Shown: one piece after another, positions 758-63,548 of the stretch
Layout: every line of letters begins with the position of its first letter
How positions within the stretch are numbered: position 1 is the first letter of the stretch
DNA from: an uncultured bacterium
GTDB lineage: Bacteria > UBP15 > UBA6099
DNA: 64,000 nt
Direction of reading: 5' to 3'
NCBI GenBank assembly: GCA_964409645.1
Contig: CAYPEK010000004.1
Coordinates: 6,135 to 70,134, forward strand
Program-made: the position numbers and the translations under genes
Notes under the pieces: model-generated
The model's input: the letters and a program-made list of their open reading frames with translations, nothing else
Told to the model about the DNA's origin: nothing
Databases searched by the model: none

Positions 758-925
758 TTTGCTTCGTCCGTCCGCCGTCCACTCGGACGGTATTTTGGCA
801 TTATAGCACTTAATTCGACACGTGCCACTCGAATGCGGATCGTTTTGCGAAGCGGCGGTTGTTGGCTTATAATGAGTTTCGAATACCGTCGGCAGCCTGT
901 CGGCGGGCGGGAGCGGTTGCGCCGG

Positions 926-2914: not shown

Positions 2915-3003
2915 AAGCGGACTGGCGCGAATCCACATTTAATAATATAAATCAGCGGCGAAGGACGCCGAATCCGGCGCCGCGCAGCAAAGGAGCGGGC
3001 ATA

Positions 3004-4248: not shown

Positions 4249-4251
4249 GAA

Positions 4252-5022: not shown

Positions 5023-5052
5023 TCCCCCGTATCAAGGAGGTTTCACCTACTG

Positions 5053-5559
5053 ATGAAATTCAAAGCCGAATACGTTTTCAACGGCCCGATCGACATGGTG
5101 TGGGAAGCGAGAGAAAAAAGGTTCCACACTCCCGACCTGTTCCCCGAACTCCAGAAACATCAGGAGATCGAGCGCCGCGAGGAGGGAAAGAAGATTTTCT
5201 CGAAACGGCTCATCGAAATTTCGTCGAGCATCCCGAAGCCGCTCCAGAAAATTCTTTCCCCGGACATGCTGAACTGCACCGACGAATCGGTGTTCGACAT
5301 GGAAACCAACGTGCATACGTGGAACGTTGTGCCGAACCTCAAAACGAAAGTGTTCAAGTGCGTCGGTTACTCGAAATACACGGAGTTCGACGACGGCGGC
5401 GAGAAGAAAACACGCCGCGAGCTCGAACTGACCGTCACCGTCGATATCCCGCTGCTCGGCAAGATGGCCGAACAGGTAATCCTCGACGGCTACAAGAAGA
5501 ATCTCGAAAAAGACAACCAGACGCTCACAAAGATGATCGAAGTTTTGAAAAAAGGATGA
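5053..5559 (+). CDS. Hypothetical protein, possibly SRPBCC/Bet v1-like fold
   Basis: Clean 168-aa ORF in a gap between annotated genes. I did not recognise a family. Confidence 0.4.
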   Translation: MKFKAEYVFNGPIDMVWEAREKRFHTPDLFPELQKHQEIERREEGKKIFSKRLIEISSSIPKPLQKILSPDMLNCTDESVFDMETNVHTWNVVPNLKTKVFKCVGYSKYTEFDDGGEKKTRRELELTVTVDIPLLGKMAEQVILDGYKKNLEKDNQTLTKMIEVLKKG

Positions 5560-5594
5560 ACGCGGCCGCAGTGTCATCCAAGGGGACTGATTAA

Positions 5595-6173
5595 GTGAAC
5601 GTTTATTCAGCAATACAACGGCGGCGCACGATCCGGCGGTTCAAAGAAACGCCCATCTCGGAGGCGTCGCTTATAAAACTCGTCGATGTCGCCCGGCTTG
5701 CGCCCTCCGCGGGCAACCAGCAGCCGCTCGAATACGTCACGGTCAATTCGAAGGAAAAATGCAGCGCCGTGTTCCCGCTCCTCAAGTGGGCGCGGTTCAT
5801 CAAACCCGACGACACGCCGCCCGAGGGCAAGCGGCCCGGCGCATATATAATCGTTCTGATAAACAGAAGCATCGCGTCGAAAGGCGGTTCGCACGACGCG
5901 GGCGCGGCGGTGCAGAACATCATGCTCGCCGCGCTCGAGGACGATATCGGCTCGTGCTGGCTGCGAACGATCGACCGCTCGGCAATAAAGGAGCTGTTCG
6001 GCATCCCGGACCACGTCGAAGTGGACAGCGTGATCGCGCTCGGCAAGTCCGCCGAATCACCGATGACCGAAACCGCACGCAGCGAAAACATCGAATACTG
6101 GCGCGACGAACGCGGTCTGATGCACGTGCCGAAACGCAAAATCGACAACGTTCTTCACAAGGAAAAATACTGA
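5595..6173 (+). CDS. Nitroreductase family protein
   Basis: Opens with the family hallmark IQRRRTIRRFKETPISEASLIKLVDVARLAPSAGNQQPLEYVTV, followed by GSCWL. Confidence 0.85.
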   Translation: MNVYSAIQRRRTIRRFKETPISEASLIKLVDVARLAPSAGNQQPLEYVTVNSKEKCSAVFPLLKWARFIKPDDTPPEGKRPGAYIIVLINRSIASKGGSHDAGAAVQNIMLAALEDDIGSCWLRTIDRSAIKELFGIPDHVEVDSVIALGKSAESPMTETARSENIEYWRDERGLMHVPKRKIDNVLHKEKY

Positions 6174-6187
6174 CGCGGGACGCAACA

Positions 6188-8185
6188 ATGCCCGACGAAA
6201 ACAAACCGCGCCCGGACTACCCCACCCTTACGACTGTGCATATCGCGACGCCGCAGATCACCTCCGGCGGCGATTTCGTTTACAGGCTCAGACAGCCTGA
6301 CACCGCTCTCGGCCGCATCCCCGGCGTCGCCACCGCGAGCATCACAAACATCTTCTCCCGCAGACGCGCGCTGTGCCTCAATGCCGACATCCTCGTCATA
6401 CAACTCCTCGGCGACCCTGATATGCTCCCGATTATGCTCGCGCGCCGCGCCGCAGGCAGACCGACGATCTTCGAAATCTCGGACAACTTCATGAACTTTC
6501 AGCTTTCGAATCCGGCCGCCGCATATCACGACGTCCCCGAAAACCGCGCATGCATCCTTCAGCTAATCGCGGAGGCGGACGCCGTTCAGACGACAGTTCC
6601 GCAGCTCAAAGAACTCTATTCGAAATACAACCCTCACATTGAGGTGTTTGAAAACCAGATCGAAACACCCGGCAGCACCGAGAAGCCCGACGGGCCTGTC
6701 GTCGTAGGTTGGGGCGGAAGTGTCGGCCACTTCGAGGACATCCGCGCCGCGGCGCCCGAAATTGTCCGCTGGCTCAACAGCCGCGCGGACGTTGTTTTCT
6801 CGCTTATGGCGGACCCGAAATTCAAGTCGTTTTTCAGCAACGCTCCGAAGAACAGGTTCCGATTCACACCTCCCGGCTCGCTTCAGGATTACTACTCGTT
6901 TGTCGGCGGTCTCCATATCGGGATCGCGCCGCTCAGGGACGACCCTTTCAACCTCTGCCGCTCAGACGTCAAATTCATCGAGTACGCATCCCACGGAGTA
7001 GTGCCGGTCTGCTCGGACGTGCCGACGTACAATCGCACGCTTCGCGACGGCGTAACGGGTTTTCTTTTCAGCAATACGGAGCAGATGATAGGAATTCTGG
7101 ACCGGCTCGCGACGGACATCACGCTGCGAAAAAAAATCGCGTCGCAGGCTTATGAATACATTAAAAACGAACGCTCGGAGCAGGCGGCGGCGGAACAACG
7201 ACTCGTATTTTACAAATCGCTGCTTCCGCATAATTACGCGCCCGGCAGTCTCGACGAGAAAAAACTGGAATCCATGCCGGGACTGAAACGCTTCGGCGAT
7301 TCCGCTCATTTCATCCACGAACTCACATTTGCCGAACAGCACATCTATAACGCACTCGTCTATCTGTACAACCAAGGAAATCCGGAAGAGGCGGAGAGGT
7401 CCGCGCGTGCGGCGGTATCCGCGGAACCGGACCATTTCTACGTGAATTATGTTCTCGGTGAATCACTGCTGAAAACCAACCCACACGCGGCGGAGAAATG
7501 CTTCCGAAAAGCTGCGGGGCTGTTTCCCGAATCCTGCGCGTCACGCCTCGCGGCGGCAAGACTGTCGGCGGCGGCAGGCAAATACCCGGAAGCGCGCGCG
7601 GCTCTGCAAAAGATTCAAAAAGATTGCCCGGCTTTCGCGCAGGCTTTCGCTCTCGAAGCGGAAATATCAATTGCGGAAAATGACGCGGCCGGCGCGGAGG
7701 CTCTGCTGCGGCGCGCGCTCGAAGCCAACCGGTTCTACTCTCCCGCATCGCTTCGCCTCGGCGCGATGAAACTCGAATCCGGCGACGCCGAAGAGGCGGA
7801 AATATTCTTCCGCGATGCGGCGGAGACGCTGCCGCGCTCGGCTGATGCACGTTGCGGTATGGCAATCGCGCTCGATACGCTCGGCCGGGAGAACGAAGCA
7901 GCGGAATTGCTCCTCGAAGCTTTGCCGCTCGCGACGGACCCGGCGCCGGTGGCCGGCTCGATCCTTAAGATCGCGCTCGATCGTTACAAATCCGGAAAAT
8001 TCGAGGACGCACTTTCACTGCTCGACCGTCTGCTCGACGGCGTGCCCGATCTGCTCGAAGCTATTTTCTGGGCGGCGCGCATCGCCGAGCGATCGGGCGG
8101 AAAGAAAGCCGCCCTCCCATATCTCAAGCGCCTCGCGGCGGCGGACACAGCGGGGAAATACAAACGTTCTTATCAGGATATGTGA
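6188..8185 (+). CDS. Glycosyltransferase (GT1-like Rossmann C-terminal fold) fused to a C-terminal TPR-repeat domain
   Basis: The track ORF 5759-8185 overlaps the nitroreductase gene. The in-frame ATG at 6188 (MPDENKPRPDY) is the plausible start. The GT-like core is GWGGSVGHFEDI...HIGIAPLRDDPFNLCRSDVKFIEYASHGVVPVCSDVPTYNRTLRDGVTGFLF. The C-terminal ~300 aa is Ala/Leu-rich with TPR-like periodicity. Confidence 0.6.
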   Translation: MPDENKPRPDYPTLTTVHIATPQITSGGDFVYRLRQPDTALGRIPGVATASITNIFSRRRALCLNADILVIQLLGDPDMLPIMLARRAAGRPTIFEISDNFMNFQLSNPAAAYHDVPENRACILQLIAEADAVQTTVPQLKELYSKYNPHIEVFENQIETPGSTEKPDGPVVVGWGGSVGHFEDIRAAAPEIVRWLNSRADVVFSLMADPKFKSFFSNAPKNRFRFTPPGSLQDYYSFVGGLHIGIAPLRDDPFNLCRSDVKFIEYASHGVVPVCSDVPTYNRTLRDGVTGFLFSNTEQMIGILDRLATDITLRKKIASQAYEYIKNERSEQAAAEQRLVFYKSLLPHNYAPGSLDEKKLESMPGLKRFGDSAHFIHELTFAEQHIYNALVYLYNQGNPEEAERSARAAVSAEPDHFYVNYVLGESLLKTNPHAAEKCFRKAAGLFPESCASRLAAARLSAAAGKYPEARAALQKIQKDCPAFAQAFALEAEISIAENDAAGAEALLRRALEANRFYSPASLRLGAMKLESGDAEEAEIFFRDAAETLPRSADARCGMAIALDTLGRENEAAELLLEALPLATDPAPVAGSILKIALDRYKSGKFEDALSLLDRLLDGVPDLLEAIFWAARIAERSGGKKAALPYLKRLAAADTAGKYKRSYQDM

Positions 8186-8236
8186 ATAGATTGACGCGGG
8201 GACGCGCAGCAACGCGCCCCCGCAAGGGTACTATCA

Positions 8237-11089
8237 TCAGAACACAAGATTGTTCCTGTGGTTGGCCTGCTTGAGAATTTCGTCGAAGCTCTCGTCCGGC
8301 GTATTCTCTTTAGCTTCCTTCAGTTTCTTTTCCAGCTTCTTCGAGGGCGGATCACCGGGAATGTATTTGTAAACTTCCTCCAATTTCGCAAGCGACTCGT
8401 CCCACTTCCTCTGGAAATAGAATATGACGGCCTCTTCGTGCAGGCGCAGGCCTTTTTCCAGATCGTCCGGGATGCCGACTTCTTTCTTCTCTATAAGCTC
8501 GTAGATTTTCACCGGCTTTTCATAACCGGCGACCCATATTATGTCGAGCAGACGGGTGATAACGAACTCGTCGCACTCGACTTTCGTGAATTCCGATATC
8601 AACTTCTGCGTGTCGTAGTTTTTGCCGCCGCTTTCGAGGTGTTCCCCGAGTTCGACGGCGGGCCCCATCGCGGTGTAGTTGAACCGCCTGATGGACCCCA
8701 TGTTGCCGCAGATCATATCGCCCGTGTTGACTCCGCAGCGAACCTGAATGTCCGGCTTGCCGCGCTCGGCCCAGCCCACCCTCAATTCGGCGAGTTTCTC
8801 CTGCATTTCTATTGCCGTATAGCAACAGTTTTTTGCGTGTTCGGGGAACGGTATCGGCGCGCCGAAGATGCCCACTATGGCGTCGCCGATGTACTTGTCG
8901 AGTGTGCCGCCGTATTTCATAAGGATGTTCGTCATCGCGGTGAGATATTCGTTGAGAAGTTCGACGAGTTCCTCCGGCGTCATCGATTCCGATATCGTTG
9001 TAAAACCGGCGATATCGGAGAAGAAAACCGTTGCGTGCATCCGTTCGCCGCCGAGCTGCAGCTTGTCCGGGTTTGCGACGAGCGTATCGACGACCTGCGG
9101 GTTTACGTACGTCGAGAACATGCCCTTCATTTTCTTCTTTTCCTGCTCTTCTGTGATGTACCTGAAGAGGAATACGAGGAGGAATGTTCCGACAACGAGA
9201 ATGATCGGCGCGAGCAGCGGCAGATTGTATCTGAACTTGATGAACATGTAGTTGCAGAACACTGCGTAAAGCGCGGCGAAAAAGAACATGAGTGTGGCGT
9301 TGATGAGCGCGACAATAATGGAGGATTTGTGCTTGACCGCGCCGCCCGCTGAACCGAGACCGACCGCGAGCACGAAGAAGATCAGCACCACGAACCATTG
9401 GTTAACGCTGAGAATAAACTGGTTGGTGACGATAGTATTGATTACGTTCGCGTGTAGGCCGAGCACCTTGTAACGCGGTTCGAGCGGTGTCGGGTTAGTG
9501 TCCGCCGCGCCTGTTGCCGTAAGGCCCACAATCAGGATTCTGCCCTTCATATCCTCGACCATTTTTTCCGCCGCGACTGCATCGGATTCCCTGAATGCGG
9601 ATAGATTTTCACTCTCTTCCGGTGTAAGTTCCTGTCCCGATTCCTGCTTCTTTTTAATGGAGTACCACGTCAGGGAGTTGTATAAATTCCTGAAACTCAT
9701 GTGGCGAAAAAGCGACGTGTCCGCCCACATGCCCGTCCAGTTAATGAGCATCATCCCGTTAATGAGAGGAACTTCAACATCTCTTTTCGTCTTCGTCTTC
9801 GGATCGCGCGCATTCTTGAGGACAATTTTGTTCTTGCTGAAAACCACATCCTTCGGCTTCACGCCGAGATACTTCATTGCGACGAGAAGGTCTATATGCG
9901 GATACAGCCTTCCGTCGTACTCCACTACCGGCGCGATCAGCCTCATGGTGCCGTCGCCCTGCGTGAACTCGGCTTTCCTGATACCCTGACCCGCCACCTG
10001 CTCGCCGATCTCAGGCCACACGGGTTTGACTTTCCGCAACTCGACATATACGCCCTTCAATTTCTTGGGAACCGGGAAGGACCACTTGTCGTTTTGCTTG
10101 TGGAACTCGGCGAGTTCGGCAGCCTTTTCCTCTTTATCCTTCTTAATCATTTCAATGACGGACGCTTTGAAAGGTTCGCCCTTCTTTTTGTCCATCAGGT
10201 AGTCGAAATCCTTGATCAGCGCGTTTTCGTAAGCGTCGAAAACCGCGCCCTCGATGGGGTCCTCCGGCCGGTTCTTCGTGGGATAAGTAATGATGCGTTC
10301 GAAAATTTTTCTTATCCTTTTACTCTCTTTCAGATCCCTGATATCGTATGGCGAATCGAGACGATTCTTCGCGTCGTAAGTGAAATAGACGTTTTTCGCG
10401 GTTGTAGCGGCAGTTGCGATCACTTTCTCGCGATTGGGCGCGAGACCGCCTCGCGAACTTTCATTCTCTGCAAATGCGGCCACCTGCTGCATATAGTTCG
10501 AGAACGTCGTCATATTGGGATCGAAAAGAATTTCATCGAGTTTCGCGGCTATCGCCGGAGCGTTGGTCGCGGCATCCTGCTCTCCGAGCAATTCTCCGTA
10601 AAAACCGGCGTTCTGGAGCAACTGCGTCTGAAGCTGGGCGTCCTGAGTCAGGATAGAGCTGACCTGCTGTATCTTTCCGCTCAGGTCCTGAACCGCGATC
10701 GGAATATCGCTGAAGCTCATAGCCGTGTTAAGTTTCCGGCCGTAAGGCCAGTAATAGTTGATAGCAAACACAGTGGCGAGGGCATCGGCGTAATCTTTTC
10801 CAAGCCCTTCGATCAGATTCTGATAATAAACCGGATCATCCGGGAACGTGTTTTCCCATTCGAGGGTCGTCTCCTCGATCTCGACGATGATGACATCCTT
10901 GTTGGTCGGCGCTTTCGAGATCGCCTGCCGCAGCTTGAACTTCATGTCGAGGTCGGTGTTGAACAAATTCTTCAGCGGCCCCGACAGATAGAGAATTGCG
11001 AACAGGAGCGCAACCGCCAGTCCTATGAACGGCGATACAATGCGGCTCCTCTCTTCTGCCTTTGTCGGGAGTTTGAACGGTAACTTCAT
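8237..11089 (-). CDS. Membrane receptor class III adenylate cyclase (N-terminal TM, long CHASE2-like periplasmic domain, TM bundle, cyclase homology domain, C-terminal TPR-like tail). It keeps both metal-binding Asp but lacks the transition-state Asn/Arg (C1-like half).
   Basis: Cyclase homology domain motifs: VFFSDIAGFT (metal Asp1), LDKYIGDAIVGIFGAP (Lys + metal Asp2), RCGVNTGDMICGNMG. The distal motif reads YTAMGPAVELGEHLES instead of Y(D/T)xxGDxVNxAxR. A degenerate CHASE2-like signature VIIVEIEETTLEWENTFPDDP follows TM1. Confidence 0.85.
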   Translation of the reverse strand: MKLPFKLPTKAEERSRIVSPFIGLAVALLFAILYLSGPLKNLFNTDLDMKFKLRQAISKAPTNKDVIIVEIEETTLEWENTFPDDPVYYQNLIEGLGKDYADALATVFAINYYWPYGRKLNTAMSFSDIPIAVQDLSGKIQQVSSILTQDAQLQTQLLQNAGFYGELLGEQDAATNAPAIAAKLDEILFDPNMTTFSNYMQQVAAFAENESSRGGLAPNREKVIATAATTAKNVYFTYDAKNRLDSPYDIRDLKESKRIRKIFERIITYPTKNRPEDPIEGAVFDAYENALIKDFDYLMDKKKGEPFKASVIEMIKKDKEEKAAELAEFHKQNDKWSFPVPKKLKGVYVELRKVKPVWPEIGEQVAGQGIRKAEFTQGDGTMRLIAPVVEYDGRLYPHIDLLVAMKYLGVKPKDVVFSKNKIVLKNARDPKTKTKRDVEVPLINGMMLINWTGMWADTSLFRHMSFRNLYNSLTWYSIKKKQESGQELTPEESENLSAFRESDAVAAEKMVEDMKGRILIVGLTATGAADTNPTPLEPRYKVLGLHANVINTIVTNQFILSVNQWFVVLIFFVLAVGLGSAGGAVKHKSSIIVALINATLMFFFAALYAVFCNYMFIKFRYNLPLLAPIILVVGTFLLVFLFRYITEEQEKKKMKGMFSTYVNPQVVDTLVANPDKLQLGGERMHATVFFSDIAGFTTISESMTPEELVELLNEYLTAMTNILMKYGGTLDKYIGDAIVGIFGAPIPFPEHAKNCCYTAIEMQEKLAELRVGWAERGKPDIQVRCGVNTGDMICGNMGSIRRFNYTAMGPAVELGEHLESGGKNYDTQKLISEFTKVECDEFVITRLLDIIWVAGYEKPVKIYELIEKKEVGIPDDLEKGLRLHEEAVIFYFQRKWDESLAKLEEVYKYIPGDPPSKKLEKKLKEAKENTPDESFDEILKQANHRNNLVF

Positions 11090-11129: not shown

Positions 11130-13982
11130 TTATTTCGTCGTCATCGTGTAAACGCCGTCCCAATTTTCGCCGGGCGGGTTGATCTTGTACTCCTCGCACC
11201 TGCCTAGGAAGATTCTGCTCGGACCGTCGTTCGGTTCGGCTTCGAGCGCCAGCTTGAACTGAGCGATCGCGTCGTCCCACTTCTGCGCGAGGTAGAGTTG
11301 CGTTCCGGTTACAAAATGCTTGCGGCAGGCTTCGAGGGTGGCCGTAAGTCCCTCGTCCGTGCGGCCCATCAGCTCGAACACTTCGACCGGTTCGTCGCGG
11401 CCCTTCACCCGTATCTTGTCTATCGAGCGGGCGATTATCTTGTCCTTCGCTTTCGCATACGTGAATTCGCTTATCATCAGGCTGGTCTTGTATTGCTTGT
11501 TGGCGCCGAGAATACGGGACGCGAGGTTTACGGCGTCGCCCATGATCGTGTAGTTGAACCGCGTCTCGGAGCCCATGTTCCCGGCGATCATCATGCCGGA
11601 GTTGATGCCCACACTCGTGTGGATCGGCTTCTTTCCCTCGGCTTCCCATTTCTTGTAAAGTTCGAGAGTGGCCTTGCGCATCTCGAGCGCGGCGTAACAG
11701 TTCTTGACGGCGTTGTCCTCGTAGTAAATCGGTGCGCCGAAAACGGCCATTATTATGCTTCCCTCGTATTTGTCTAACATTCCGCTGTTATCGAAGATCG
11801 GATCGGTCATCGCTGTGAAGTATTCGTTGAGGCGGTCAACAAGTTCCTCCGGCGTCTCGGCGTCCTCGAGGCCCGGTCCGGACGCGAGCGCGAACATCGC
11901 CGACAGGTCCATCTTCTCGCCGCCGAGCTGCAACTTCTCCGGGTTTTGTATCAGCGTATCGACGACCTCCGGGTTCACGTACGTCGAGAACATCGCCTTC
12001 ATCCGTTTCGCTTCCTGTCCCTCCGTCATGAACCTGTATATAACTACGAATAGATACGTGAAAACAAGCGAAAGGATGATCGGAAACACGATGATCCAGA
12101 GCCGTGCATACGCAAAAAGAAGATACGCGATTATCGTGTAGGCCAGTATTATTCCGAACGTGACCGCAGCGCCCTTTGCCTGTTTGTACATGCCGCCGGA
12201 GTAACCCGCGACAACCGAAAGAGCAATAATCGTAAGGAAGAAAAACCAGAACGGCGTAGTGCGGATAAACAACTGATTTACGATGGTGTTCACAAGGTTG
12301 CCGTGCATTCCGACGAGCGGGTAGCGCGGGTGGAACGGCATCGGGTTCAGGTCGTGCGTATCGGAAGCGGTTACGCCGGTGAGCGTGATTTTATTGTTGA
12401 AGAATTTCATTCGTTTCTTAACAGCGTCTATTTCCTTGTCCGAAAGGCCCCCCACCTGTTTCTGTTCCGCCTGCGTGAGCGTTTCCCCGCGGTCGAACTT
12501 ATTCATAATGTTGTATATCACGGCATCGTCGTGAACGCGCCTGAAACTGCGGTGGACGAATGTGTTCGGCTGCATGTATGTGCCGGACCAGTTCACAAGC
12601 ACCGTCCCGTCGTCGAGAAGCGGTATCGTCACATCGAATTTTTTCTTATCTCCCGGTTTTGTGCAGTTCTTCAGGACAATTTTGTTCTCGTAGAAAACAA
12701 CGTCTTTCTTTTTAACGTCGAGATATCTCATCGCCAGCATCAGGTCGATATGAGGATAGAGCCTACCCTCGAACACGACCACCGGCGCCGCCGCGCGTAT
12801 GATTTCCGTGTACCATTTCAGTTCCGGCATGACGTATCCGTCGCCCGCCGAGAATTCGCCCACGGATTTGATCGGCGACTCCATCGTCACTATGTTGACG
12901 TATTTCTTGAACAGCTTTTCCTTGGAAACTGGAGCATCCTTTCCTATATCGAATCCGAACGGGTAATTTGCCTCTATGATGTTCTGATTGTATGCGTGCA
13001 ACTTATCCCGTTCGTTTTTTATTGCTTCCCTTTCGACATCTGTAAACGGGAGAGCTTTTCTTCCGCCTTTCTCTTTCGCCTGCTCTAAAAGCCTGTCGTA
13101 ATCCTCGACCTTCATGTTGCGGAGAGCGTAGTTGACGGCGACTTCTTCCTTGTTTTTCGTCTTCGCCCTGTCCGCCATGACAATCAGCTTCTGGAAAATT
13201 CCGTGGTAATGCGGATCGTACATTATCTGGCCGATCGTCACTGTCGTCCGTTCCGGCTTCGTCACAGTCTGCGCGAGATACACATTGCCAGCGTACTGGA
13301 TCGCGTCGTGGAGTATCTTGTCCCTGTCGGGCGCGATTCCGGACGGATCTGAACTTTCGAACAAAGATATTCCTTGTGAATTGAATTGATCGATCTGCGT
13401 CTGCATCGTTTTGTTGCCGGCGACTCCGAGCAGCTTGTTCTTCGCCGAATCGAGCGTCGGCAGTGTCGGCGGCAGCCTCAGTTCCTCACCCGCCTCGTAA
13501 AGTCCGTTCTTCACTTCGTCTATCGTCGCCTGATTTTCCTGAATCTGAGACGGCAGCTTATCGAACGTGCCCGCTATTTCATTGTTTAGGATCGGCCCCG
13601 AAGGATCGAAGAAGAATATATCGAAGAATGTCCCCTTTGCTTTTGAGCCCGGCGTGCCGAGGCCGCGGATAATTTCCGCGTACAGCCTGCGGTCGAACGG
13701 CCACGGCTTCCATTCCCAGCTCTCGTCGTCGATGTCGAGCAGAACGAGATTCTGCGAGATGTTCTTCTGCGGCATCGCTCCCCTGATCCGGAAGCGCACG
13801 TCGTACGTCCAGTATTCCATCTTGTTGTAGAAGTCGTTGACAATCGAAAGCGTGCTGTTGGCCTTCATCGTCTTGGTGTTGAACATAAGCCCGAAAATCA
13901 CGGCCACCACTAAGCCTATCAACACGCCCATGATCGGGTTTCGTTTCTCAGGGCTTTTCGGGAGTCCCAGCGAAAATTTCAT
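11130..13982 (-). CDS. Paralogous membrane CHASE2 class III cyclase, also 950 aa. Both metal-binding Asp are substituted, but Lys/Thr/Asn/Arg are retained (C2-like half).
   Basis: CHASE2 signature NLVLLDIDDESWEWKPWPFDRRLYAEII...FFDIFFFDP. Cyclase domain has AMFALASGPG in place of FFSDIAGFT and LDKYEGSIIMAVFGAP with Ser in place of the second Asp. It keeps VGINSGMMIAGNMG and YTIMGDAVNLASRIL. Confidence 0.85.
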   Translation of the reverse strand: MKFSLGLPKSPEKRNPIMGVLIGLVVAVIFGLMFNTKTMKANSTLSIVNDFYNKMEYWTYDVRFRIRGAMPQKNISQNLVLLDIDDESWEWKPWPFDRRLYAEIIRGLGTPGSKAKGTFFDIFFFDPSGPILNNEIAGTFDKLPSQIQENQATIDEVKNGLYEAGEELRLPPTLPTLDSAKNKLLGVAGNKTMQTQIDQFNSQGISLFESSDPSGIAPDRDKILHDAIQYAGNVYLAQTVTKPERTTVTIGQIMYDPHYHGIFQKLIVMADRAKTKNKEEVAVNYALRNMKVEDYDRLLEQAKEKGGRKALPFTDVEREAIKNERDKLHAYNQNIIEANYPFGFDIGKDAPVSKEKLFKKYVNIVTMESPIKSVGEFSAGDGYVMPELKWYTEIIRAAAPVVVFEGRLYPHIDLMLAMRYLDVKKKDVVFYENKIVLKNCTKPGDKKKFDVTIPLLDDGTVLVNWSGTYMQPNTFVHRSFRRVHDDAVIYNIMNKFDRGETLTQAEQKQVGGLSDKEIDAVKKRMKFFNNKITLTGVTASDTHDLNPMPFHPRYPLVGMHGNLVNTIVNQLFIRTTPFWFFFLTIIALSVVAGYSGGMYKQAKGAAVTFGIILAYTIIAYLLFAYARLWIIVFPIILSLVFTYLFVVIYRFMTEGQEAKRMKAMFSTYVNPEVVDTLIQNPEKLQLGGEKMDLSAMFALASGPGLEDAETPEELVDRLNEYFTAMTDPIFDNSGMLDKYEGSIIMAVFGAPIYYEDNAVKNCYAALEMRKATLELYKKWEAEGKKPIHTSVGINSGMMIAGNMGSETRFNYTIMGDAVNLASRILGANKQYKTSLMISEFTYAKAKDKIIARSIDKIRVKGRDEPVEVFELMGRTDEGLTATLEACRKHFVTGTQLYLAQKWDDAIAQFKLALEAEPNDGPSRIFLGRCEEYKINPPGENWDGVYTMTTK

Positions 13983-32238: not shown

Positions 32239-33168
32239 ATGACTGATGAAGAATTGATTAAAGAGATAAAAAGATTATTCGGGTCCAAGAGAATAACGCT
32301 CTTAAAAGCACTTCATGAATGTGCAGATAAAATACCCGTACAAGCAATGATTGAGCAAGAATTACAAAAAACAACGGGGCTGCATGTAAAATCATGTGTT
32401 GCGCTATCTGATGATACCCTGAAATGGATGTCTCAAAAGTCCAGTGACATTAAGAAGCTGAATTTCGATCCCGAAGACCGTTCCGAACTAATAGGAGATC
32501 CGAGTTTCTGGTTCCTTTTACTATTGAATAAGAATATAAAAGACCCTCTCGATTTCGATGAGAAGTTGGCGGAACGACACAACACTTTATTCTTTTGTGA
32601 AATCTGGGCAAGTATTCTTTTTCCTCTGTACACCTACGACATCTATTATTGGAAATATTCGAAAAAAGATAATATTCAGGAATTTGGCCCTTATAAGCCC
32701 CAAAAAAAGCACGAAGCAATTGCCGTTAATGACATGAAGAAGGCAATGAAAACATTCGGTTATAAATTAATATCGAAGAAAACAGCAAAAACAATAATCA
32801 GACAAGCTATAACGGATTGCGCGGAAAAAGGCGAGGCTACAGTTTTCGATTGTATCTTCAGCGATATGACATTTTATACGGAAACAAAATCACGGATGAA
32901 CATAGAAAGGAATGTTTATCCTGAGCTTGGAATGGAATGCAACTGGAGAGAATATTACGACAAAAAACATAAACTATATGAAAAAAAGATTTACATGCAA
33001 TTTTATGAAAGAGATGACGAGACCATCGTTATTGATTCTGAAGGCAGAATTAAAAAATTTGAGATAGGCTCAGGAAGTCACGCAAACATACCTTCCCAAT
33101 GGATCACTTACGATACCGATAAAAAGACCGGTTATCTTACCAGAAAAAAAGAAAAACACAAGGGATAA
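32239..33168 (+). CDS. Orphan hypothetical protein (309 aa, Lys-rich) on an AT-rich island
   Basis: The ORF is complete but its AT-rich composition clashes with the flanking genes. No family was recognised. Confidence 0.6.
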   Translation: MTDEELIKEIKRLFGSKRITLLKALHECADKIPVQAMIEQELQKTTGLHVKSCVALSDDTLKWMSQKSSDIKKLNFDPEDRSELIGDPSFWFLLLLNKNIKDPLDFDEKLAERHNTLFFCEIWASILFPLYTYDIYYWKYSKKDNIQEFGPYKPQKKHEAIAVNDMKKAMKTFGYKLISKKTAKTIIRQAITDCAEKGEATVFDCIFSDMTFYTETKSRMNIERNVYPELGMECNWREYYDKKHKLYEKKIYMQFYERDDETIVIDSEGRIKKFEIGSGSHANIPSQWITYDTDKKTGYLTRKKEKHKG

Positions 33169-56839: not shown

Positions 56840-57550
56840 TCACAAAACGCTCGCCGCCACAGCGGCGGCGGCAATCGCCGCCGTCTCAGCCCTCAAGATC
56901 AAACGGCCAAGCGAGGCCGCCCTGAAACCGGCTTCGGAAGCAGCGCAGGCTTCCGCATCCGTCCAGTCGCCCTCCGGGCCGACGAGTATCATTATCCGCC
57001 CTTCGCCCGCGCCGCGCAACAAATCGACAAGCGGCGCCGACTCCGGCCCCTTTAATAATATTATCCGTCCGGAGAACCCGTCTCCGACTTCCGCCACGAG
57101 TTGCTTCATCGAAACCGGCCCGCAAATCGCCGGCGCGCGGCCCGCGCATTGCGCCGCCGCCCCGCCGAGAATCCGACGCCACCGCGCGAGTTTCCCCTCC
57201 GCATCCGCCGCGTCGGCCCGCACAACGCACCGCTCCGCGACAACCGGGATTATCTCGCCGACTCCAAGCTCCGCCGATTTTTCGAGCAGCATGTCCCACC
57301 GCGGCCCCTTGATCATCGACGCCGCAAGTGTCACACGCCCGCACGGCGCCTCCGGAAGTTCGCGCTCGCTCTCGACCGCGACTTCCACCTCCGCGCCGCG
57401 AAACGACTCCACCTTAAGCACGAACTCGCGCGCGCCGTCGTAGCCCGCGAAAACGTCGCCGGCCTTCAGCCGCAGAACCTTTTTAATGTGTCCCGCCGCC
57501 GCGCCGCCCACAACACCGCCGCTGAATTCGTCTAAATAAACGCGTTCCAT
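56840..57550 (-). CDS. rsmE: 16S rRNA (uracil1498-N3)-methyltransferase RsmE
   Basis: PUA-like N-terminus; conserved GPEGDWTDAE and LGRLILRAETAAIAA. Confidence 0.8.
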   Translation of the reverse strand: MERVYLDEFSGGVVGGAAAGHIKKVLRLKAGDVFAGYDGAREFVLKVESFRGAEVEVAVESERELPEAPCGRVTLAASMIKGPRWDMLLEKSAELGVGEIIPVVAERCVVRADAADAEGKLARWRRILGGAAAQCAGRAPAICGPVSMKQLVAEVGDGFSGRIILLKGPESAPLVDLLRGAGEGRIMILVGPEGDWTDAEACAASEAGFRAASLGRLILRAETAAIAAAAVAASVL

Positions 57551-57739
57551 TGTTCCTTTTTAGCAACAAAGCCATTTTTTCGTAAAATTTATTTAGTAAT
57601 GATCGGCGGAGTGCGGCCAGCCGAACGGCGACCCCGCCCTGCATATTTTGAATGTTGTTTTTTGTCTTTTGCTATATTCTATATTCTTGTTTTTATTTTC
57701 CGTTTTTTTTACTGCCTTCTGCCTGCTTCCCTCTGCCTG

Positions 57740-58852
57740 TCATTTAAATATTTCCTTCAGTTTCTTAAACACCCTTTTCTGCGGGTGCGAGAGGTCCTCG
57801 CCGCCCTCCTCTGCAAACTGCTTGAGGAGCTTCTTCTGATTCGCCGTCAGCTTCTCCGGCACCATAACCTTCACAACTACATGCTGGTCGCCTTTGTGCG
57901 AACCGCGCAGATTCGGGAAACCCGCGCCGCGCATCCGGAATATCGCCCCCGTCTGCGTGCCCGCCGGTATCTTTATCGCCTGCTTGCCGTAGAGCGTCGG
58001 CACCTCGATCTCGTCGCCGAGCGCCGCCTGCGTGAAGCTGATCGGCACCTCGCAGTAAACATCCTGACCGTCACGCTTGAAAAACTCGTGCTCCATCACA
58101 TGGATGACAATGAACAGATCGCCTCGCGGGCCGCCGCGCTCGCCATACTCCCCCTCGCTGCTCAACCGCAGCCGCTGGCCCGTTTCAACACCCGGCGGCA
58201 CCGAAATCTGCAGCTTGCGCGAGCCGCGCACGCGGCCCATTCCCCGGCATTCGCCGCACGGGTCCGCAACCTCCACGCCGGTGCCCCGGCACGACGGGCA
58301 CGTCTGCACGTTCACCATCTGACCGAACAGCGTCTGCTTCGTCTGCCTGAACTCGCCCGTGCCGCCGCAGCGCGAGCATTTCACCGGCGGCGCGCCCGAC
58401 TTCGAGCCCGTGCCGCCGCATTTCTCGCACTTCACCTGCGACGGGATTTCAATCTCCGCGTTCTTTCCGAACGCCGCGTCGAAGAAAGAGATTTCGATAT
58501 CGTATCGAAGATCGGCGCCGCGCGCGGGCCCGCGGCTTGCTCCGCGTCCGCCACCGCCGCCGCCGAAAAACATGTCGAAGATGTCACCGAAACCGCCGAA
58601 TCCGAAATCGTCCGCCTGCCCGCGCCCGGACAGCCCTTCGTGCCCGTACCGGTCGTAAACCGAGCGCTTCTGATCGTCACTCAGCACCTGATACGCCTCG
58701 GAGACTTCCTTGAACTTCTCCTCGGCCTGCGCGTCGTTCGGGTTAACATCCGGGTGGAGCTTCCTCGCGAGCTGCCTGTACGCCTTCTTGAGTTCGTCCT
58801 GCGTGGCGCCGCGGGAGACGCCGAGAACCTCGTAGTAATCGCGTTTTGCCAT
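57740..58852 (-). CDS. dnaJ: Chaperone DnaJ
   Basis: J-domain [35 protein letters not shown]. Gly-rich linker. Four CxxCxGxG repeats ([32 protein letters not shown]). Confidence 0.95.
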
Positions 58853-59933: not shown

Positions 59934-60140
59934 CCTTAACCACCGCTCAGATGTCCGCACCGGACATCGCCATTCCAATCCGAATATTATATTGAATGAG
60001 GCGGCGGAAAGCAAAAAAGTAAGTCCGCATTCAAATCAAACAGACATCAAAATGGCTTTCCGGCGCTCGCAAAGCATATTCGCGATGTGCCGCCCGGCAA
60101 AAAAAGCTCCGTCAAAAACAAATTTATTTTTAAAACTGCT

Positions 60141-60166
60141 TAAGTTTTTCTCCTACCCGCCGATTC
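60141..60166 (+). promoter_or_regulatory. Sigma28 (FliA)-type promoter candidate: TTAAGTTT, 11 nt spacer, GCCGATTC
   Basis: This fits the consensus TAAAGTTT-N11-GCCGATAA with a perfect GCCGAT core and exact spacing. It lies ~70 nt upstream of ATG 60236. Confidence 0.45.
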
Positions 60167-60235
60167 CATATAACATAGTATTTATTATTATCATTGATTG
60201 TATTTTACCAACAAATTAATTGAGGAGTGAACGCC

Positions 60236-62698
60236 ATGTCGATACTTAATAGTCTGTCCGGCCTTTCAACAAACAGTCTTCTGATTTCGAATAAAAACTC
60301 GGCGGCTTCAAGCAAAAAAAACGGACTTTTCAGCAAATCAGCGGCCGCCAAGACAAATGCAAGCTACAAAGCAACCATTTCATCCAACGTGGATTCACTT
60401 AGCACGCTCATCGGTCAGGTGGACAGCGAACTCTCCGTTTTCACTGCGACAAGCTCCCTGACGAAAAACATCAACTTCAGCTCAGCATTCAAAAGCGCGT
60501 TTTCCAACTCGGCGTTCAACCAATCCTCATTTTCTCTAACGCCTCAAACCGCCTCACAGAAGATCACAAGTCTCGCAAAGAATATCGTCGATACCGCATC
60601 GAGCACCAACAACCTCCCGTCGTCTCAGAAAATCAAACTACTGCTCGCTGTCATGAACCTGATCGACAAAGCCTTCACAAGCACGAAAGATATCTACAAT
60701 TCGATGAACCTTTATTCCGGCTATAACGCACAAAGCCTCCAGCAGACGCAATCACTCACCTCTCAAAATCTGACCAGCTACCTGAACTCTCTAACAACAT
60801 CCACCTCGTCCGGCACGGCTACCGGAACGACTACGGGCGCCACAACCGGAACAGCCGGTACAACAACAGGAACAACTCCCACGCAGCCCCCCAATACACA
60901 AACAACAACACAATCAACACCCTCCTCGATCCTCAGCGATCCGAATGCTCAGAAAGCACTCGAAACGCTCAAAAACAGCGATTATTTCTATTTTGGGTCG
61001 GGAACAATGGCCTTACAATATCCAATAGATGGGATAATTGACAATATTCATTTTAGTAACCAATTACAAACCGATATAAATGGTATCCAGCATGTTATTT
61101 CCGTATCGCTTGAAACCAATACAGTAATGCTCGATTACGGGACACAAACATTCGGTAATTTTTTCGGTAATTTAACTGAAGCAAGTAAATATATTGATAC
61201 CGCACAGCAAGCAACTATTTTAGATTCATCCGGTCAAACACATACAATACAGGGCGTATTTGCAAATGGAACAGTGACCGACACTGTTGTTGACGGTGTT
61301 ACAATGAACTCGCAGGAACTCGTGAATTGGGCTTCGAGTGCAGGTTTGGCGGCCAATACCTATACAATCTCTTCCGGCCAACAAATAACCGAGTACCACG
61401 CAACAACTCAGTCGCCTTATGGAAGTTCTGATGCAATTATCGCAGCGACTGTGGACGGACAGGCGCTTAACCGCCAAGAGTATCTTATAGACCACAGAAG
61501 ATATAGTAACGCTCCTAATTGGCCCGCCGTTTCCGGTTATGTTGAAACTCCTTCCGGTAATTATGTTTATTTAGACGAAAATATGGTTGCCGGCCAAGCA
61601 ACGATTAACGGAACTTCGGTAACCGATCAGCAGCTTGTCAACTGGGCAAAACAGGAAGGCCTTGAGACAAAATCTTATGACATCGCCGGGAATCAAGTTA
61701 ACGAATATTATGCCAGTTTTGTCACATCATTAGGTACAAAGAAAATCCGAATCGCAGCAGAAGTGAACGGAATCGTTTGCAACAGCCTAAATTGGGTCAA
61801 CTCTTCTGGATCGCAATTATTTTTTTCTGAAAACACCGCAACTATCGAAGATGCTTCGGGCAATTACATTACAACCGGCCTCTGGAAAACATGGTACGAC
61901 GTACAGACGGCCCAAGTAGAAGAAAGCTTGTTTTCAATTAATGGAATGGTCCTTACTAATGAGCAGGATAATATCGACTGGGCTAAAAATAACAATCTTT
62001 ACAACAGAACCCTTACTGTAAACGGCAAAAATGTAACAGAATATTACATCTATGACACAAGTCAAACTGACAAAAACATATTAAATTTATTTGCGGTTGA
62101 AGTTGATGGAACTGCTTATTCTATCAGTGATTATGTAAATTCGGCATACAAAGCGCCGGATTTGACCTTAACAGCCAGCCCGATTGTGCTTGATCTCACG
62201 GGGAATGGAATCGAATCGGTCAGTGCGGAACAGGGAGTTCAGTTCGACCTCCTCGGGACGGGCCAAAAGGTGCAGACCGGCTGGGTGAGCCCGGGCGCGG
62301 CCTTCCTCGCCCTCGACAAGGACAACAGCGGCTCGATCGAGAGCGGCAAGGAGCTGTTCGGCAACCAGAGCGGCGCCGCCAACGGCTACGAGGAACTCGC
62401 AAAATACGACGAGAATAACGACGGCGTCATAAACGCCTCCGACTCCATCTACAACAAGCTCCTTCTGTGGCAGGATACCAACATGAACGGCGTGAGCGAC
62501 ACCGGCGAACTAAGCAGCCTCGCCGACACCGGCGTCTCATCCATCAACGTCAACTACAATACCGTCTCCGAAACGGTGACGGGCGGCAACCAGATACGCC
62601 AACGCTCGTTCTTCACTTTTGAAAACGGCACAACGGGCAACACCGCCGATATCTGGTTCCGCTACAACGCGTTTTCGGCATATGTCAACGTCGCCTGA
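60236..62698 (+). CDS. Ser/Thr/Asn-rich 820-aa mosaic protein: no signal peptide, Thr-rich linker, three ~55-aa internal repeats, C-terminal module with three DxDxDG-type Ca2+-binding loops
   Basis: SD GAGGAG 11 nt before ATG 60236. Coding DNA 60236-62200 is AT-rich, and the last ~500 bp are native high-GC. Repeats VTDQQLVNWAKQEGLETKSYDIAGNQVNEYY, MNSQELVNWASSAGLAANTYTISSGQQITEYH and LTNEQDNIDWAKNNNLYNRTLTVNGKNVTEYY. Ca2+-loop motifs DKDNSGSIE, DENNDGVINASD and DTNMNGVSDTGE. Confidence 0.65.
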   Translation: MSILNSLSGLSTNSLLISNKNSAASSKKNGLFSKSAAAKTNASYKATISSNVDSLSTLIGQVDSELSVFTATSSLTKNINFSSAFKSAFSNSAFNQSSFSLTPQTASQKITSLAKNIVDTASSTNNLPSSQKIKLLLAVMNLIDKAFTSTKDIYNSMNLYSGYNAQSLQQTQSLTSQNLTSYLNSLTTSTSSGTATGTTTGATTGTAGTTTGTTPTQPPNTQTTTQSTPSSILSDPNAQKALETLKNSDYFYFGSGTMALQYPIDGIIDNIHFSNQLQTDINGIQHVISVSLETNTVMLDYGTQTFGNFFGNLTEASKYIDTAQQATILDSSGQTHTIQGVFANGTVTDTVVDGVTMNSQELVNWASSAGLAANTYTISSGQQITEYHATTQSPYGSSDAIIAATVDGQALNRQEYLIDHRRYSNAPNWPAVSGYVETPSGNYVYLDENMVAGQATINGTSVTDQQLVNWAKQEGLETKSYDIAGNQVNEYYASFVTSLGTKKIRIAAEVNGIVCNSLNWVNSSGSQLFFSENTATIEDASGNYITTGLWKTWYDVQTAQVEESLFSINGMVLTNEQDNIDWAKNNNLYNRTLTVNGKNVTEYYIYDTSQTDKNILNLFAVEVDGTAYSISDYVNSAYKAPDLTLTASPIVLDLTGNGIESVSAEQGVQFDLLGTGQKVQTGWVSPGAAFLALDKDNSGSIESGKELFGNQSGAANGYEELAKYDENNDGVINASDSIYNKLLLWQDTNMNGVSDTGELSSLADTGVSSINVNYNTVSETVTGGNQIRQRSFFTFENGTTGNTADIWFRYNAFSAYVNVA

Positions 62699-62726: not shown

Positions 62727-63548
62727 TTATCTTGAATATACTTGTAAAAAACCCGCAAGCGGCATTCCTGTGATGTTATCCGAGTAGAGCATCCCGCCCT
62801 CTGTGCAGTTGAACGCCTCGAAACCGCGTTCCTCCCGCCTCCGGTGGGCGACATATCCGTCTATCCATTCCAAAGAGAGCAGAAAACTTTTGAGCGTATG
62901 AAACCGGCGGCCGTCCGTCAGTTCGAGCAGAAGGTAGTTCTCAGAATCTTTCCAGCCCGGTTCCGGCTCCGGCGCGCTCAAGTCCACACCCGCGAAACAG
63001 ACAGGCCGACAGCCCATCAGATCCGCGAGCGCGAACGCGAAATTTGAAACAATGAACCCGCCGGGGATGAACGCCGCCCGGCCGCATATCCGGCGTGCCT
63101 CCGCCATATAGTCGGGGTCTTTGTCCTGTGTGTTGTAGAAAACCACCTGTTTCCACGGCAGAGCGAGCGTTTCCTTCGGGGTGTACGTCGAGGCGAGCAG
63201 CGTGTCGCGTTCGATACCCGGCCCGGCGAAAAAAGACGCCGTTGCCGCGCTTGGGTCTGTGGTCACAACAAAGTCGGGGGTTACGCCGAGGCTCACGAGC
63301 CTGTCGCGCCCGCGGTCGCACACGAACACGACCGCATCGCCGTGTTCCCGCAGCAGCGCGCAATTCCTTTCGATTCCGGGCCCCGCGCCGACGACAATTC
63401 CCGCCCTGCCCGCGCACGACCCCTTATACTCACCCGCATGAGGATGCTTTTCGACAACAGGCGCGTTCTTCCTCATGTTCGCGAGCATCAGATCCAATCG
63501 TATGTGGCGCGATTCGTCCAAAGCTGCTCCGATGTTTACAGCCTGCAT
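62727..63548 (-). CDS. DUF115-family protein (MptE-like / Maf motility-accessory-factor-like)
   Basis: Gly-rich nucleotide-binding-like IVVGAGPGIERN. 273 aa. Family assignment is from overall similarity recall only. Confidence 0.4.
   Translation of the reverse strand: MQAVNIGAALDESRHIRLDLMLANMRKNAPVVEKHPHAGEYKGSCAGRAGIVVGAGPGIERNCALLREHGDAVVFVCDRGRDRLVSLGVTPDFVVTTDPSAATASFFAGPGIERDTLLASTYTPKETLALPWKQVVFYNTQDKDPDYMAEARRICGRAAFIPGGFIVSNFAFALADLMGCRPVCFAGVDLSAPEPEPGWKDSENYLLLELTDGRRFHTLKSFLLSLEWIDGYVAHRRREERGFEAFNCTEGGMLYSDNITGMPLAGFLQVYSR

Follow-up and report, generated by a model that had tools for sequence, protein, structure and literature searches.

A codon-usage mosaic gene of an uncultured UBP15 bacterium, predicted to join a rare repeat passenger to a terminal Ser-Pro form of the FrpC-type self-processing module

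Gene locus and general features

The sequence analysed here, hereafter the window, is a stretch of 64,000 nucleotides from the genome assembly of an uncultured bacterium of the GTDB lineage UBP15; UBA6099 (GCA_964409645.1, contig CAYPEK010000004.1, positions 6,135 to 70,134 of the forward strand). Our subject is one gene near its end, whose product ends in a domain of the FrpC type, the self-processing module (SPM). The open reading frame (ORF) runs without interruption on the + strand from an ATG at 60236, or a GTG at 60227, to 62698, which gives a product of 820 or 823 residues, and no other + strand gene lies between hrcA-dnaJ on one side and an MptE-like gene with pgi on the other (Table 1). 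The identical 820-residue product is found in a public assembly (P0029), a version of 822 residues, 99% identical (P0001, P0030), occurs in four other assemblies, and the same gene with the same flanks has been assembled independently at least five times (GCA_020047475.1, three Logan runs and the window record). A strain of 96% identity (L017-L019) also carries the gene in the same place, likewise between hrcA-dnaJ and the MptE-like gene and pgi. A promoter scan of the intergenic region upstream of the gene returned only consensus-level promoter-like matches, terminator and tandem-repeat scans at the gene were uninformative, the window holds no Rfam match to an RNA, and PADLOC gave no match.

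Table 1. Coordinates of the gene, its regions and key residues in the window
Feature	Coordinates	Strand	Remarks
Intergenic region, AT-rich, presumed promoter region	60015..60235	.	Between divergent hrcA (-) and the ORF; G+C 0.37-0.42
ORF, 820 aa	60236..62698	+	Lone + strand gene amid - strand housekeeping genes; alternative GTG 60227
Zone 1 region, Ser/Thr/Asn/Leu-rich, aa 1-187	60236..60796	+	S 22%, T 13%, N 10%; GC3 0.60; CAI 0.47
Low-complexity Thr/Gly/Gln/Pro-rich linker, aa 188-230	60797..60925	+	Contains the first GC3 change point (nt 60848)
Pre-repeat segment, aa 231-324	60926..61207	+	Begins with a conserved 'SILxDP...' helix; alignment with L020 starts here
Passenger unit A, aa 325-430	61208..61525	+	Unit alignments; modelled strands and helix at 326-424
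Passenger unit B, aa 431-520	61526..61795	+	Modelled unit
Passenger unit C, aa 521-648	61796..62179	+	Insertion of about 30 aa; truncated, abuts the SPM directly
Ser648-Pro649 (AGC CCG)	62177..62182	+	Aligns with the scissile Asp414-Pro415 of FrpC (Pro649 on Pro415 in HMMER alignments to 6sjw/6sjx; family alignment)
SPM (PF26745), Ser-Pro subtype, aa 649-808	62180..62659	+	PDB sequence match (6sjw_A), PF26745 on P0001, Foldseek (see text)
Codon-usage junction	62186..62260	+	Support interval from the likelihood profile; best nt 62240 = codon 668, 19 codons inside the SPM
EF-hand-like putative Ca2+ loop 1, D694-E706	62315..62353	+	FrpC D462-E474
EF-hand-like putative Ca2+ loop 2, D725-D736	62408..62443	+	FrpC D499-D511
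EF-hand-like putative Ca2+ loop 3, D747-E758	62474..62509	+	FrpC D521-E533
'DIWF' strand, aa 805-808	62648..62659	+	FrpC D579-L582 ('narrow port'); Ser/Thr-Pro subtype signature
12-residue tail past the SPM, RYNAFSAYVNVA	62660..62695	+	No RTX repeats; low-confidence short helix

Codon usage along the reading frame

An earlier note on this DNA had described a single uninterrupted ORF, AT-rich over its 5' part and switching abruptly to a host-like G+C level at its 3' end. The profiles of G+C at third codon positions (GC3) and of the codon adaptation index (CAI) bear out the single frame and the abrupt switch; they also recover the low GC3 and G+C of the 5' part, which is nevertheless not uniform, the first of the zones defined below being intermediate. 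The G+C content amounts to 0.37-0.48 from 60100 to about 62200 and to 0.58-0.61 over 62100-62500, for 0.60-0.67 in the flanking genes. It is the third codon position that carries the contrast, with a GC3 of 0.24-0.48 over codons 226-650 and of 0.78-0.94 over codons 651-823, and maximum-likelihood change points at codons 204 and 668 divide the ORF into three zones with a GC3 of 0.60 (zone 1, codons 1-204), 0.38 (zone 2, codons 205-668) and 0.85 (zone 3, codons 669-820). Codons 640-669, at the second junction, are mixed and nearly all those from codon 670 onwards are G- or C-ending; this junction lies no more than about 20 codons from where the putative Ca2+-binding C-terminal module begins.

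Across the window's 27 host genes the mean GC3 is 0.77, and the lowest value among their 397 stretches of 150 codons is 0.60. With the CAI trained on the window's own genes, zone 2 scores 0.37 and zone 3 scores 0.69, along with the value of zone 1 given in Table 1, for a host median of 0.68 and a minimum of 0.51. The fallback considered in the earlier note, a bias driven by amino-acid content, is contradicted by the codons themselves: those ending in G or C are rarer in zone 2 than in zone 3 for all 16 amino acids tabulated, and since codon choice differs for every amino acid the bias is not amino-acid-driven. The mosaic is thus real, and its 3' part is host-typical.

Identity and key residues of the C-terminal module

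A phmmer search against the PDB aligned the C-terminal region with the module of FrpC (6sjw_A, E 3.8e-29) over 160 residues, query residues 9-168 falling on residues 1-168 of the chain, that is, the whole module of about 165-177 residues. PF26745, named 'SPM', is the precomputed annotation of the 99%-identical P0001; it was not reported by the local Pfam scan, and the identification therefore relies on the PDB sequence search and on precomputed annotations. Searched as a whole against Pfam and NCBIfam, the protein gave only sub-threshold matches (EcsC, DUF5610 and EF-hand). The AlphaFold model, built with 23 sequences, has a predicted local distance difference test score (pLDDT) of 81-96 over residues 650-810, and Foldseek placed the modelled module on 6sjw (E 1.6e-14, TM-score normalised to the target 0.79) and 6sjx (E 3.3e-13). 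On sequence and predicted structure, the module is an FrpC-type SPM, equivalent to FrpC residues 415-591 and with the same predicted fold.

The three DxDxDG-like loops and the beta-rich end pointed out in the earlier note are real; they had been read as a dockerin-like or anchoring module, which the match to the FrpC SPM replaces. The dockerin or EF-hand pair was rejected as a candidate, the dockerin-bearing 2y3n_B being aligned at an E-value of 0.96 and the EF-hand_1, EF-hand_5 and EF-hand_6 models scoring 14.7-16.5 bits, below their cut-offs of 25-25.9. With the loops and the W451/W519 pair defined as for FrpC (PMC7078468), all three loops are predicted to bind Ca2+, and the tryptophan pair is kept as the Trp of 'TGWV' and the Trp of 'LLLWQD'. 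FrpC L475, G477, G491 and D579 are also kept, and FrpC D414 is replaced by Ser. The fourth, incomplete site (FrpC D419/D421/D423/G424) corresponds to D653, T655, N657 and G658 in the window; at the fifth site the residues concerned are D478, which is Asn in the window, and D579, which is kept. Among FrpC mutants, D478N cleaves at an only moderately reduced rate and D579N is not significantly affected (PMC7078468), while D414A neither cleaves nor ligates (PMC7846742).

Published SPMs are described as internal and exclusive to RTX proteins of more than 1000 residues, and when Ca2+-bound as cleaving a specific Asp-Pro bond, the Asp anhydride so formed becoming linked to lysines (PMC7078468). Ser-Pro at the junction rules out this Asp-anhydride 'clip-and-link' chemistry here, and makes the window protein a member of the SPM domain family that lacks the hallmark of the clip-and-link class. 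It also departs from the published description in its ending: only 12 residues follow the SPM, and no RTX repeat was found as a HemolysinCabind (PF00353) match at E<=1.

Distribution and subtypes of the module

We gathered 103 SPM-bearing sequences, in 96 of which the residue before the proline could be read: Asp in 44, Ser in 42, Thr in 9 and Leu in a single one, so that Ser or Thr is present in 51 of the 52 readable sequences without Asp. The nearest neighbour is of the same type for 78 of the 84 non-identical domains. Domains of the Ser/Thr type keep the proline (44/44) and D579 (42/44), and mostly share N478 (32/44), W581 (33/44) and F582 (37/44), whereas the Asp type has N, D or L and then L or F at the two last positions of the 'DIWF' strand. 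On these sequence patterns the Ser/Thr-Pro SPMs are a coherent subtype and not a product of decay; and as the position before the proline is limited to three nucleophilic side chains (D, S, T), it can be argued that the junction still does chemistry. The searched literature that names the module holds no mention of the Ser/Thr-Pro form or of terminal RTX-free SPMs.

The terminal position is frequent, 44 of the 83 sampled domains being followed by at most 35 residues, and varied N-terminal regions precede the SPM across the family. A scan of genome contigs for the module gave best matches 48-49% identical, in metagenome-assembled genomes (MAGs) of Planctomycetota and in Pseudoduganella. The expectation of the earlier note that a conserved C-terminal module is combined with varied N-terminal parts holds at the level of the family, including the L023 array described below, and is not demonstrated for the window gene; the check it proposed, for the same C-terminal part behind another N-terminal part, returned no SPM paralogue and no second copy of the zone 3 DNA within the 64 kb of the window. 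No consistent codon contrast between N-terminal part and SPM is seen in the 15 other SPM genes fetched, two of which (L011, L013) show the reverse.

Several relatives are of note in their own right. In Planctomycetota and Wallbacteria (L002:9350-10534, L007:9281-10510, L004, L006, L012), proteins of 390-410 residues carry a terminal Asp-Pro SPM behind a polar low-complexity N-terminal part and lack RTX repeats, in contrast with the published restriction of the SPM to large RTX proteins. Other SPM-terminal genes (L021, L022) stand alone among housekeeping genes, with no conserved partner or secretion genes seen nearby. Contig L023 (ENA ERZ27269910, 29% G+C) holds at 408-9007 three tandem pairs, each composed of a multi-transmembrane protein of about 260 residues and then an RTX/SPM-terminal protein; the latter are 869, 570 and 556 residues long, have related glycine-rich N-terminal parts, and include Asp-Pro and Ser-Pro paralogues side by side. 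By analogy, this layout resembles that of polymorphic toxin and immunity genes.

N-terminal region and passenger repeats

No domain was recognised in residues 1-187, which gave sub-threshold Pfam matches only (DUF5610, E 7e-4; EcsC, E 7.5e-5) and no match in the PDB sequence search. Low-confidence helices with a pLDDT mostly below 50 are modelled there, and the N-terminal 324 residues as a whole stay below 50 except for short stretches within residues 112-138, a model compatible with the disordered Ser/Asn-rich N-terminus described in the earlier note. Inspection by eye found neither a charged n-region nor a continuous hydrophobic core at the N-terminus, which agrees with the absence of a signal peptide reported before. 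The linker has a weak 12-nt periodicity. The pre-repeat segment is modelled with low confidence and has invariant columns in the alignment with the homologue L020 described below, which has a Pro/Ser/Ala linker in the position equivalent to that of the window's linker.

The three repeats that the earlier note had counted at about 55 residues each do share a W-A-K...TEYY core, and the full unit extends over about 105 residues. Eleven passenger units align. A single-unit model reaches a pLDDT of 85.6 and has no fold match among solved structures, and the passenger (residues 231-648) holds three such units of about 105 residues, predicted to be alpha/beta. An exhaustive HMMER search with residues 226-650 against 1.84 billion cluster representatives retrieved only the protein's own cluster and P0032 (E 1e-63, 8 matched stretches), and a profile search of a 5.8-billion set found no further passenger-bearing protein. 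Besides P0032, no passenger homologue was found among about 15 billion proteins.

A distant homologue and the age of the codon-usage boundary

P0032, encoded on contig L020, is the only passenger relative and has 36-39% identity with the window protein (blastp, residues 229-626 against 210-614). Its true ORF on the contig is L020:179-4534, of 1451 and not 1226 residues, the frame being open as early as nt 122 and its ATG lying at 179. The architecture of its product is that of the window protein: a Ser/Gly-rich N-terminus, a Pro/Ser/Ala linker, the 'SILxDP' helix, at least nine units, the last of which is truncated in the same way as unit C, and a terminal SPM with 'TSPIALDLTGEG'; 'SAY' is common to the tails of both proteins. 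The composition follows the same course, the GC3 being 0.48-0.78 in the N-terminal part, 0.36-0.70 over the repeat units and 0.78-0.90 over the SPM, and the change point lies 22 codons past the SPM proline (codon 1297), for 19 codons in the window. Upstream of this boundary the GC3 of the two genes differs, being 0.55 before the change point in L020 and 0.38 in zone 2 of the window. Only 178 nt of L020 lie upstream of the gene, and no similarity to the window was found in them.

The two SPMs are 53% identical and the third base agrees at 61% of the identical residues, which we estimate to be about the chance level for this GC3. With synonymous sites about saturated, the window gene and L020 must have separated long ago, and their common architecture, composition and homologous boundary argue against a recent replacement of the 5' part, which the earlier note had favoured; a distant relative with full-length likeness and the same composition is what that note had itself named as counter-evidence. 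The other SPM genes fetched show no consistent contrast, so that the pattern belongs to this small family. On this sequence comparison, the boundary appears as an old, family-level trait and not as the mark of a fresh cargo swap. As to its maintenance, amelioration should erase it, recurrent import lacks a visible donor and synonymous selection lacks a mechanism.

A gene called upstream of P0032 on the opposite strand, at L020:97-816 (-), is probably spurious; its low-complexity Gly/Glu/Ala product would come from the strand complementary to that of the Pro/Ser/Ala linker.

Variation among strains

Between the window and the 96% strain, third positions differ at 262 of 2390 sites in the flanking genes (11.0%), 13 of 152 in zone 3 (8.6%, p 0.42 against the flanks), 11 of 204 in zone 1 (5.4%, p 0.012) and 14 of 464 in zone 2 (3.0%, p 5e-9). 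At positions 1 and 2 the divergence is 1.7% in zone 2, for 0.2-2.1% in the flanking genes (pooled 63/4778 = 1.3%). Divergence is patchy along the locus: hrcA is also low, at 4.8%, the best two-rate segment lies in hrcA and not in the gene, and a single clean low-divergence recombination block between the strains was looked for and not found. The low third-position divergence of zone 2 would fit either a younger ancestry of the passenger DNA or a constraint on its synonymous sites, and we do not take it as decisive because of this patchiness and of the similar behaviour of hrcA.

All differences from the 99.5% strain L001 fall within 60709-61715, with none in the surrounding 3.7 kb, SPM included. 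We count about 10 independent events there, a cluster that points to recombination over a short tract, to diversifying selection or to a mixed-strain consensus. One of the variable sites, at 61496-61524 in the loop and tail of unit A, is a compensated frameshift polymorphism made of 5-nt and 1-nt indels, for which the window and P0031 read 'HRRYSNAPNWPAV' and L001, L017 and L019 read 'HGYSDKGIAPNWYTV', each allele being present in at least two assemblies. The passenger is the variable spot of the locus.

Proposed function and alternative explanations

We propose, with a probability of roughly 60%, that the gene encodes a genuine three-part protein of a very rare family which ends in a Ser-Pro FrpC-type SPM, and that its codon mosaic is old and does not result from a recent swap. 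Residues 1-230 would form a Ser/Thr/Asn-rich, poorly ordered region with the Thr/Gly linker at its end, and the protein would probably be exported. The SPM of FrpC is unfolded at cytosolic Ca2+ and, outside the cell, folds around four or five Ca2+ ions, which strains the peptide bond at the module's own N-terminal proline. In the window protein, the likeliest roles of Ca2+ would be to induce autoprocessing via the hydroxyl, with the N-to-O acyl shift taking place at Ala647-Ser648, or to set a folding lock; the passenger would in either case be released or fixed on the outside of the cell. As Ser or Thr is kept in half of the sampled family with a signature of its own (N478, W581, F582), we take the junction to be probably functional still. 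The most plausible alternative to the anhydride would be an N-to-O acyl shift involving the bond just before that residue, by analogy with other Ser/Thr autoprocessing domains. Inteins, Hedgehog/Hint, SEA and GPS domains and Ntn-hydrolases process themselves with a Ser, Thr or Cys nucleophile, the parallel being a strained peptide bond flanked by a conserved hydroxyl residue; they offer an analogy for the proposed chemistry only, having no sequence or fold relation with the window SPM. The mosaic itself would reflect an ancient chimeric fusion, the halves of which were kept compositionally apart, or a region-specific constraint on synonymous sites.

Several observations weigh against this proposal. 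With regard to export, the window and the 10 kb downstream of it hold no genes of a type I secretion system (T1SS) or of a flagellum, and the protein has no signal peptide recognisable by eye and no RTX repeats. T1SS genes (ABC transporter, membrane-fusion protein, TolC) were likewise not found within 10 kb on either side of the gene in the sister strain, nor among the 20 larger ORFs of the window scanned against Pfam, and no flagellar genes lie at the locus in the window or the sister strain. A substrate of flagellar or type III export, considered because of the polar N-terminus and a Maf-like neighbour, was rejected, no flagellin, hook or rod match to Pfam being obtained even at E<=10. Furthermore, a hydroxyl cannot form a five-membered anhydride, and the module may simply be non-cleaving. 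Amelioration should have levelled the GC3 contrast of a fusion this old, and we know of no mechanism that keeps 1.4 kb of a gene AT-ending. The family consists of two lineages, so that 'conserved' rests on one comparison. Finally, part of the strain-level data, namely the low third-position divergence of zone 2 and the confinement of the L001 differences to 60709-61715, would suit a younger or more mobile passenger.

The alternative that survives best, and that we regard as a real though minority possibility, is that the Ser-Pro SPM has lost the clip-and-link reaction, does not cleave and acts as a Ca2+-dependent folding domain, for instance a terminal export cap or ratchet or a Ca2+-stabilised anchor, of an intact surface or secreted repeat protein. 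In its favour are the requirement of Asp414 in FrpC, given that Ser cannot yield the anhydride, the intact Ca2+ loops and Trp pair that drive Ca2+-induced folding, and the weakening of the first incomplete loop, where D-x-T-x-N-G stands for D-x-D-x-D-G. The residue before the proline should then drift, yet it is restricted to Ser and Thr in nearly all sequences without Asp and the proline is invariant among those aligned, and the strand packing over the junction bears a subtype-specific Trp/Phe pair.

Rather less likely in our view is a boundary kept by selection on synonymous sites, with neither half being foreign, for example to have the passenger decoded slowly and the Ca2+ switch rapidly, or because some property of the AT-rich DNA or RNA serves regulation. 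The same boundary in two anciently diverged homologues is what such selection would produce, as is the low third-position divergence of zone 2 in spite of a protein that evolves faster there than its neighbours. This reading has no known mechanism, the other SPM proteins fetched are without the contrast, and zone 2 is unequal in GC3 between the two homologues. A bolder extension of our own proposal, to which we would give a somewhat lower chance still, is that the Ser/Thr-Pro SPMs perform an undescribed Ca2+-triggered autoprocessing with a hydroxyl nucleophile, forming an ester by N-to-O acyl shift or a lactone, and thus constitute a second, chemically distinct clip-and-link switch; in that case the boundary might be a translation programme with a function, or a landmark of recombination tied to this switch, and not a fossil of gene transfer.

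A recent import, in which a low-GC promoter, N-terminal part and passenger were joined to a resident SPM 3' end by a crossover in the first 20 or so conserved SPM codons, appears improbable. It would be in keeping with zones 1 and 2 lying outside the GC3 and CAI range of the host and zone 3 inside it, with a lone gene on the strand opposite to the surrounding housekeeping genes, with a second codon-atypical orphan in the window (32239-33168), with zone 2 third positions 3.7-fold less diverged than the flanks, with the clustered differences from the closest strain, and with the polymorphic arrays in which SPM-terminal genes are found elsewhere. However, L020 shares both architecture and junction at saturated synonymous divergence, so that the junction predates the split of the two genes or arose twice at the same codon. 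Moreover, the passenger searches brought up no donor, the window holds no SPM paralogue, and the patchiness that includes hrcA also speaks against it. An artefact of amino-acid composition or of chimeric metagenome assembly inside the ORF, conceivable for a sequence from metagenome-type assemblies, is barely credible given the codon choice that differs per amino acid, the repeated independent assemblies with the same gene and flanks, and the continuity of the frame and of the SPM domain across the junction.

Comparison with known systems

The closest described systems are FrpC and FrpA of Neisseria meningitidis and ApxIVA of Actinobacillus pleuropneumoniae (PDB 6SJW, 6SJX), RTX clip-and-link proteins with an internal SPM. 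The window protein resembles FrpC in its homologous C-terminal 160 residues, with the same predicted fold, the three loops and the conserved residues listed above, and in an N-terminal passenger unrelated to anything known. It differs from FrpC and ApxIVA by Ser-Pro in place of Asp-Pro, Asn in place of D478, 'DIWF' in place of 'DLLL', an SPM at the very C-terminus, a length of 820 against more than 1000 residues, and the lack of RTX nonapeptides, of a recognisable T1SS signal, of T1SS genes nearby and of an FrpD-like partner gene upstream.

Ser/Thr-Pro SPMs of large RTX or calcium-binding proteins, from Salmonella enterica (P0034-36), Citrobacter (P0038), Pseudomonas (P0033/P0039) and Massilia/Pseudoduganella (L003, L005, L008, L009), share with the window Ser or Thr before the proline, N478 and Trp/Phe on the last strand, with an SPM identity of 40-47% where listed (0.46 for L003 and L005; 42-46% by BLASTP for P0033-P0039). 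Unlike the window protein, they are 600-2700 residues long, mostly have an internal SPM followed by RTX repeats, and have other N-terminal parts without the window's repeat units. The short SPM-terminal proteins of Planctomycetota, Wallbacteria and Campylobacterales MAGs (L002, L004, L006, L007, L012, P0003, P0005, P0010, P0043) come closer in layout, with a polar low-complexity N-terminal part lacking an obvious signal peptide, the SPM last, no RTX repeats, and a lone position amid housekeeping genes where the context was read; they differ in having 300-420 residues, mostly Asp-Pro, no repeat passenger and no codon contrast. Polymorphic toxins (Rhs, CdiA-CT) likewise have a sharp intragenic composition junction at a domain boundary and, family-wide, one module with many partners. 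In the window protein, however, the conserved part is C-terminal, the neighbours (hrcA and the MptE-like gene) include neither an immunity-like gene nor orphan cassettes, and all strain variants as well as the sole homologue carry the same passenger, no swapping being demonstrated.

What is new, as judged from sequence and models, is an FrpC-type SPM that is terminal, RTX-free and of the Ser-Pro form, and that carries a passenger of unmatched predicted repeat fold. The module often ends a protein without RTX repeats, and about half of the sampled members have Ser or Thr for the catalytic Asp, with a signature of their own. The SPM is already in use for protein engineering (self-excising tags, NeissLock). 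If active, the Ser/Thr form would represent a new Ca2+-inducible protein chemistry; if inactive, a self-cleaving switch would have been reused as a Ca2+-dependent folding unit. That two genes of ancient divergence keep a sharp synonymous-site boundary at one and the same codon is difficult to reconcile with standard amelioration, and offers a compact test case for region-specific forces on codon usage.

Other genes of the window

The neighbour at 62727-63548 (-), convergent with the gene and 28 nt from its stop codon, is MptE-like (PF01973, E 3e-22) and weakly resembles the Maf/PseD flagellin-glycosylation family (25 bits for a cut-off of 670); since it adjoins the gene of a Ser/Thr-rich protein, a glycosylation link between the two is conceivable. 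On the other side of the locus, the interval between rsmE and dnaJ is longer in the 96% strain by about 487 bases (57550-57740 in the window against L017:6828-7509), which carry a gene of 122 aa matching 23S_rRNA_IVP and, weakly, bAvd, that the window does not have. The second codon-atypical gene of the window, at 32239-33168 (+), is an orphan of 309 residues with a G+C of 0.36, a GC3 of 0.37 and a CAI of 0.42; it was probably acquired horizontally, has no Pfam or PADLOC match, and weakly matches the N-terminal part of DASH cryptochromes (E 2.7e-5, far below the cut-off). Two adjacent paralogues at 8237-11089 and 11130-13982 (-), of 950 residues each, combine a CHASE2 sensor with adenylate/guanylate cyclase domains.

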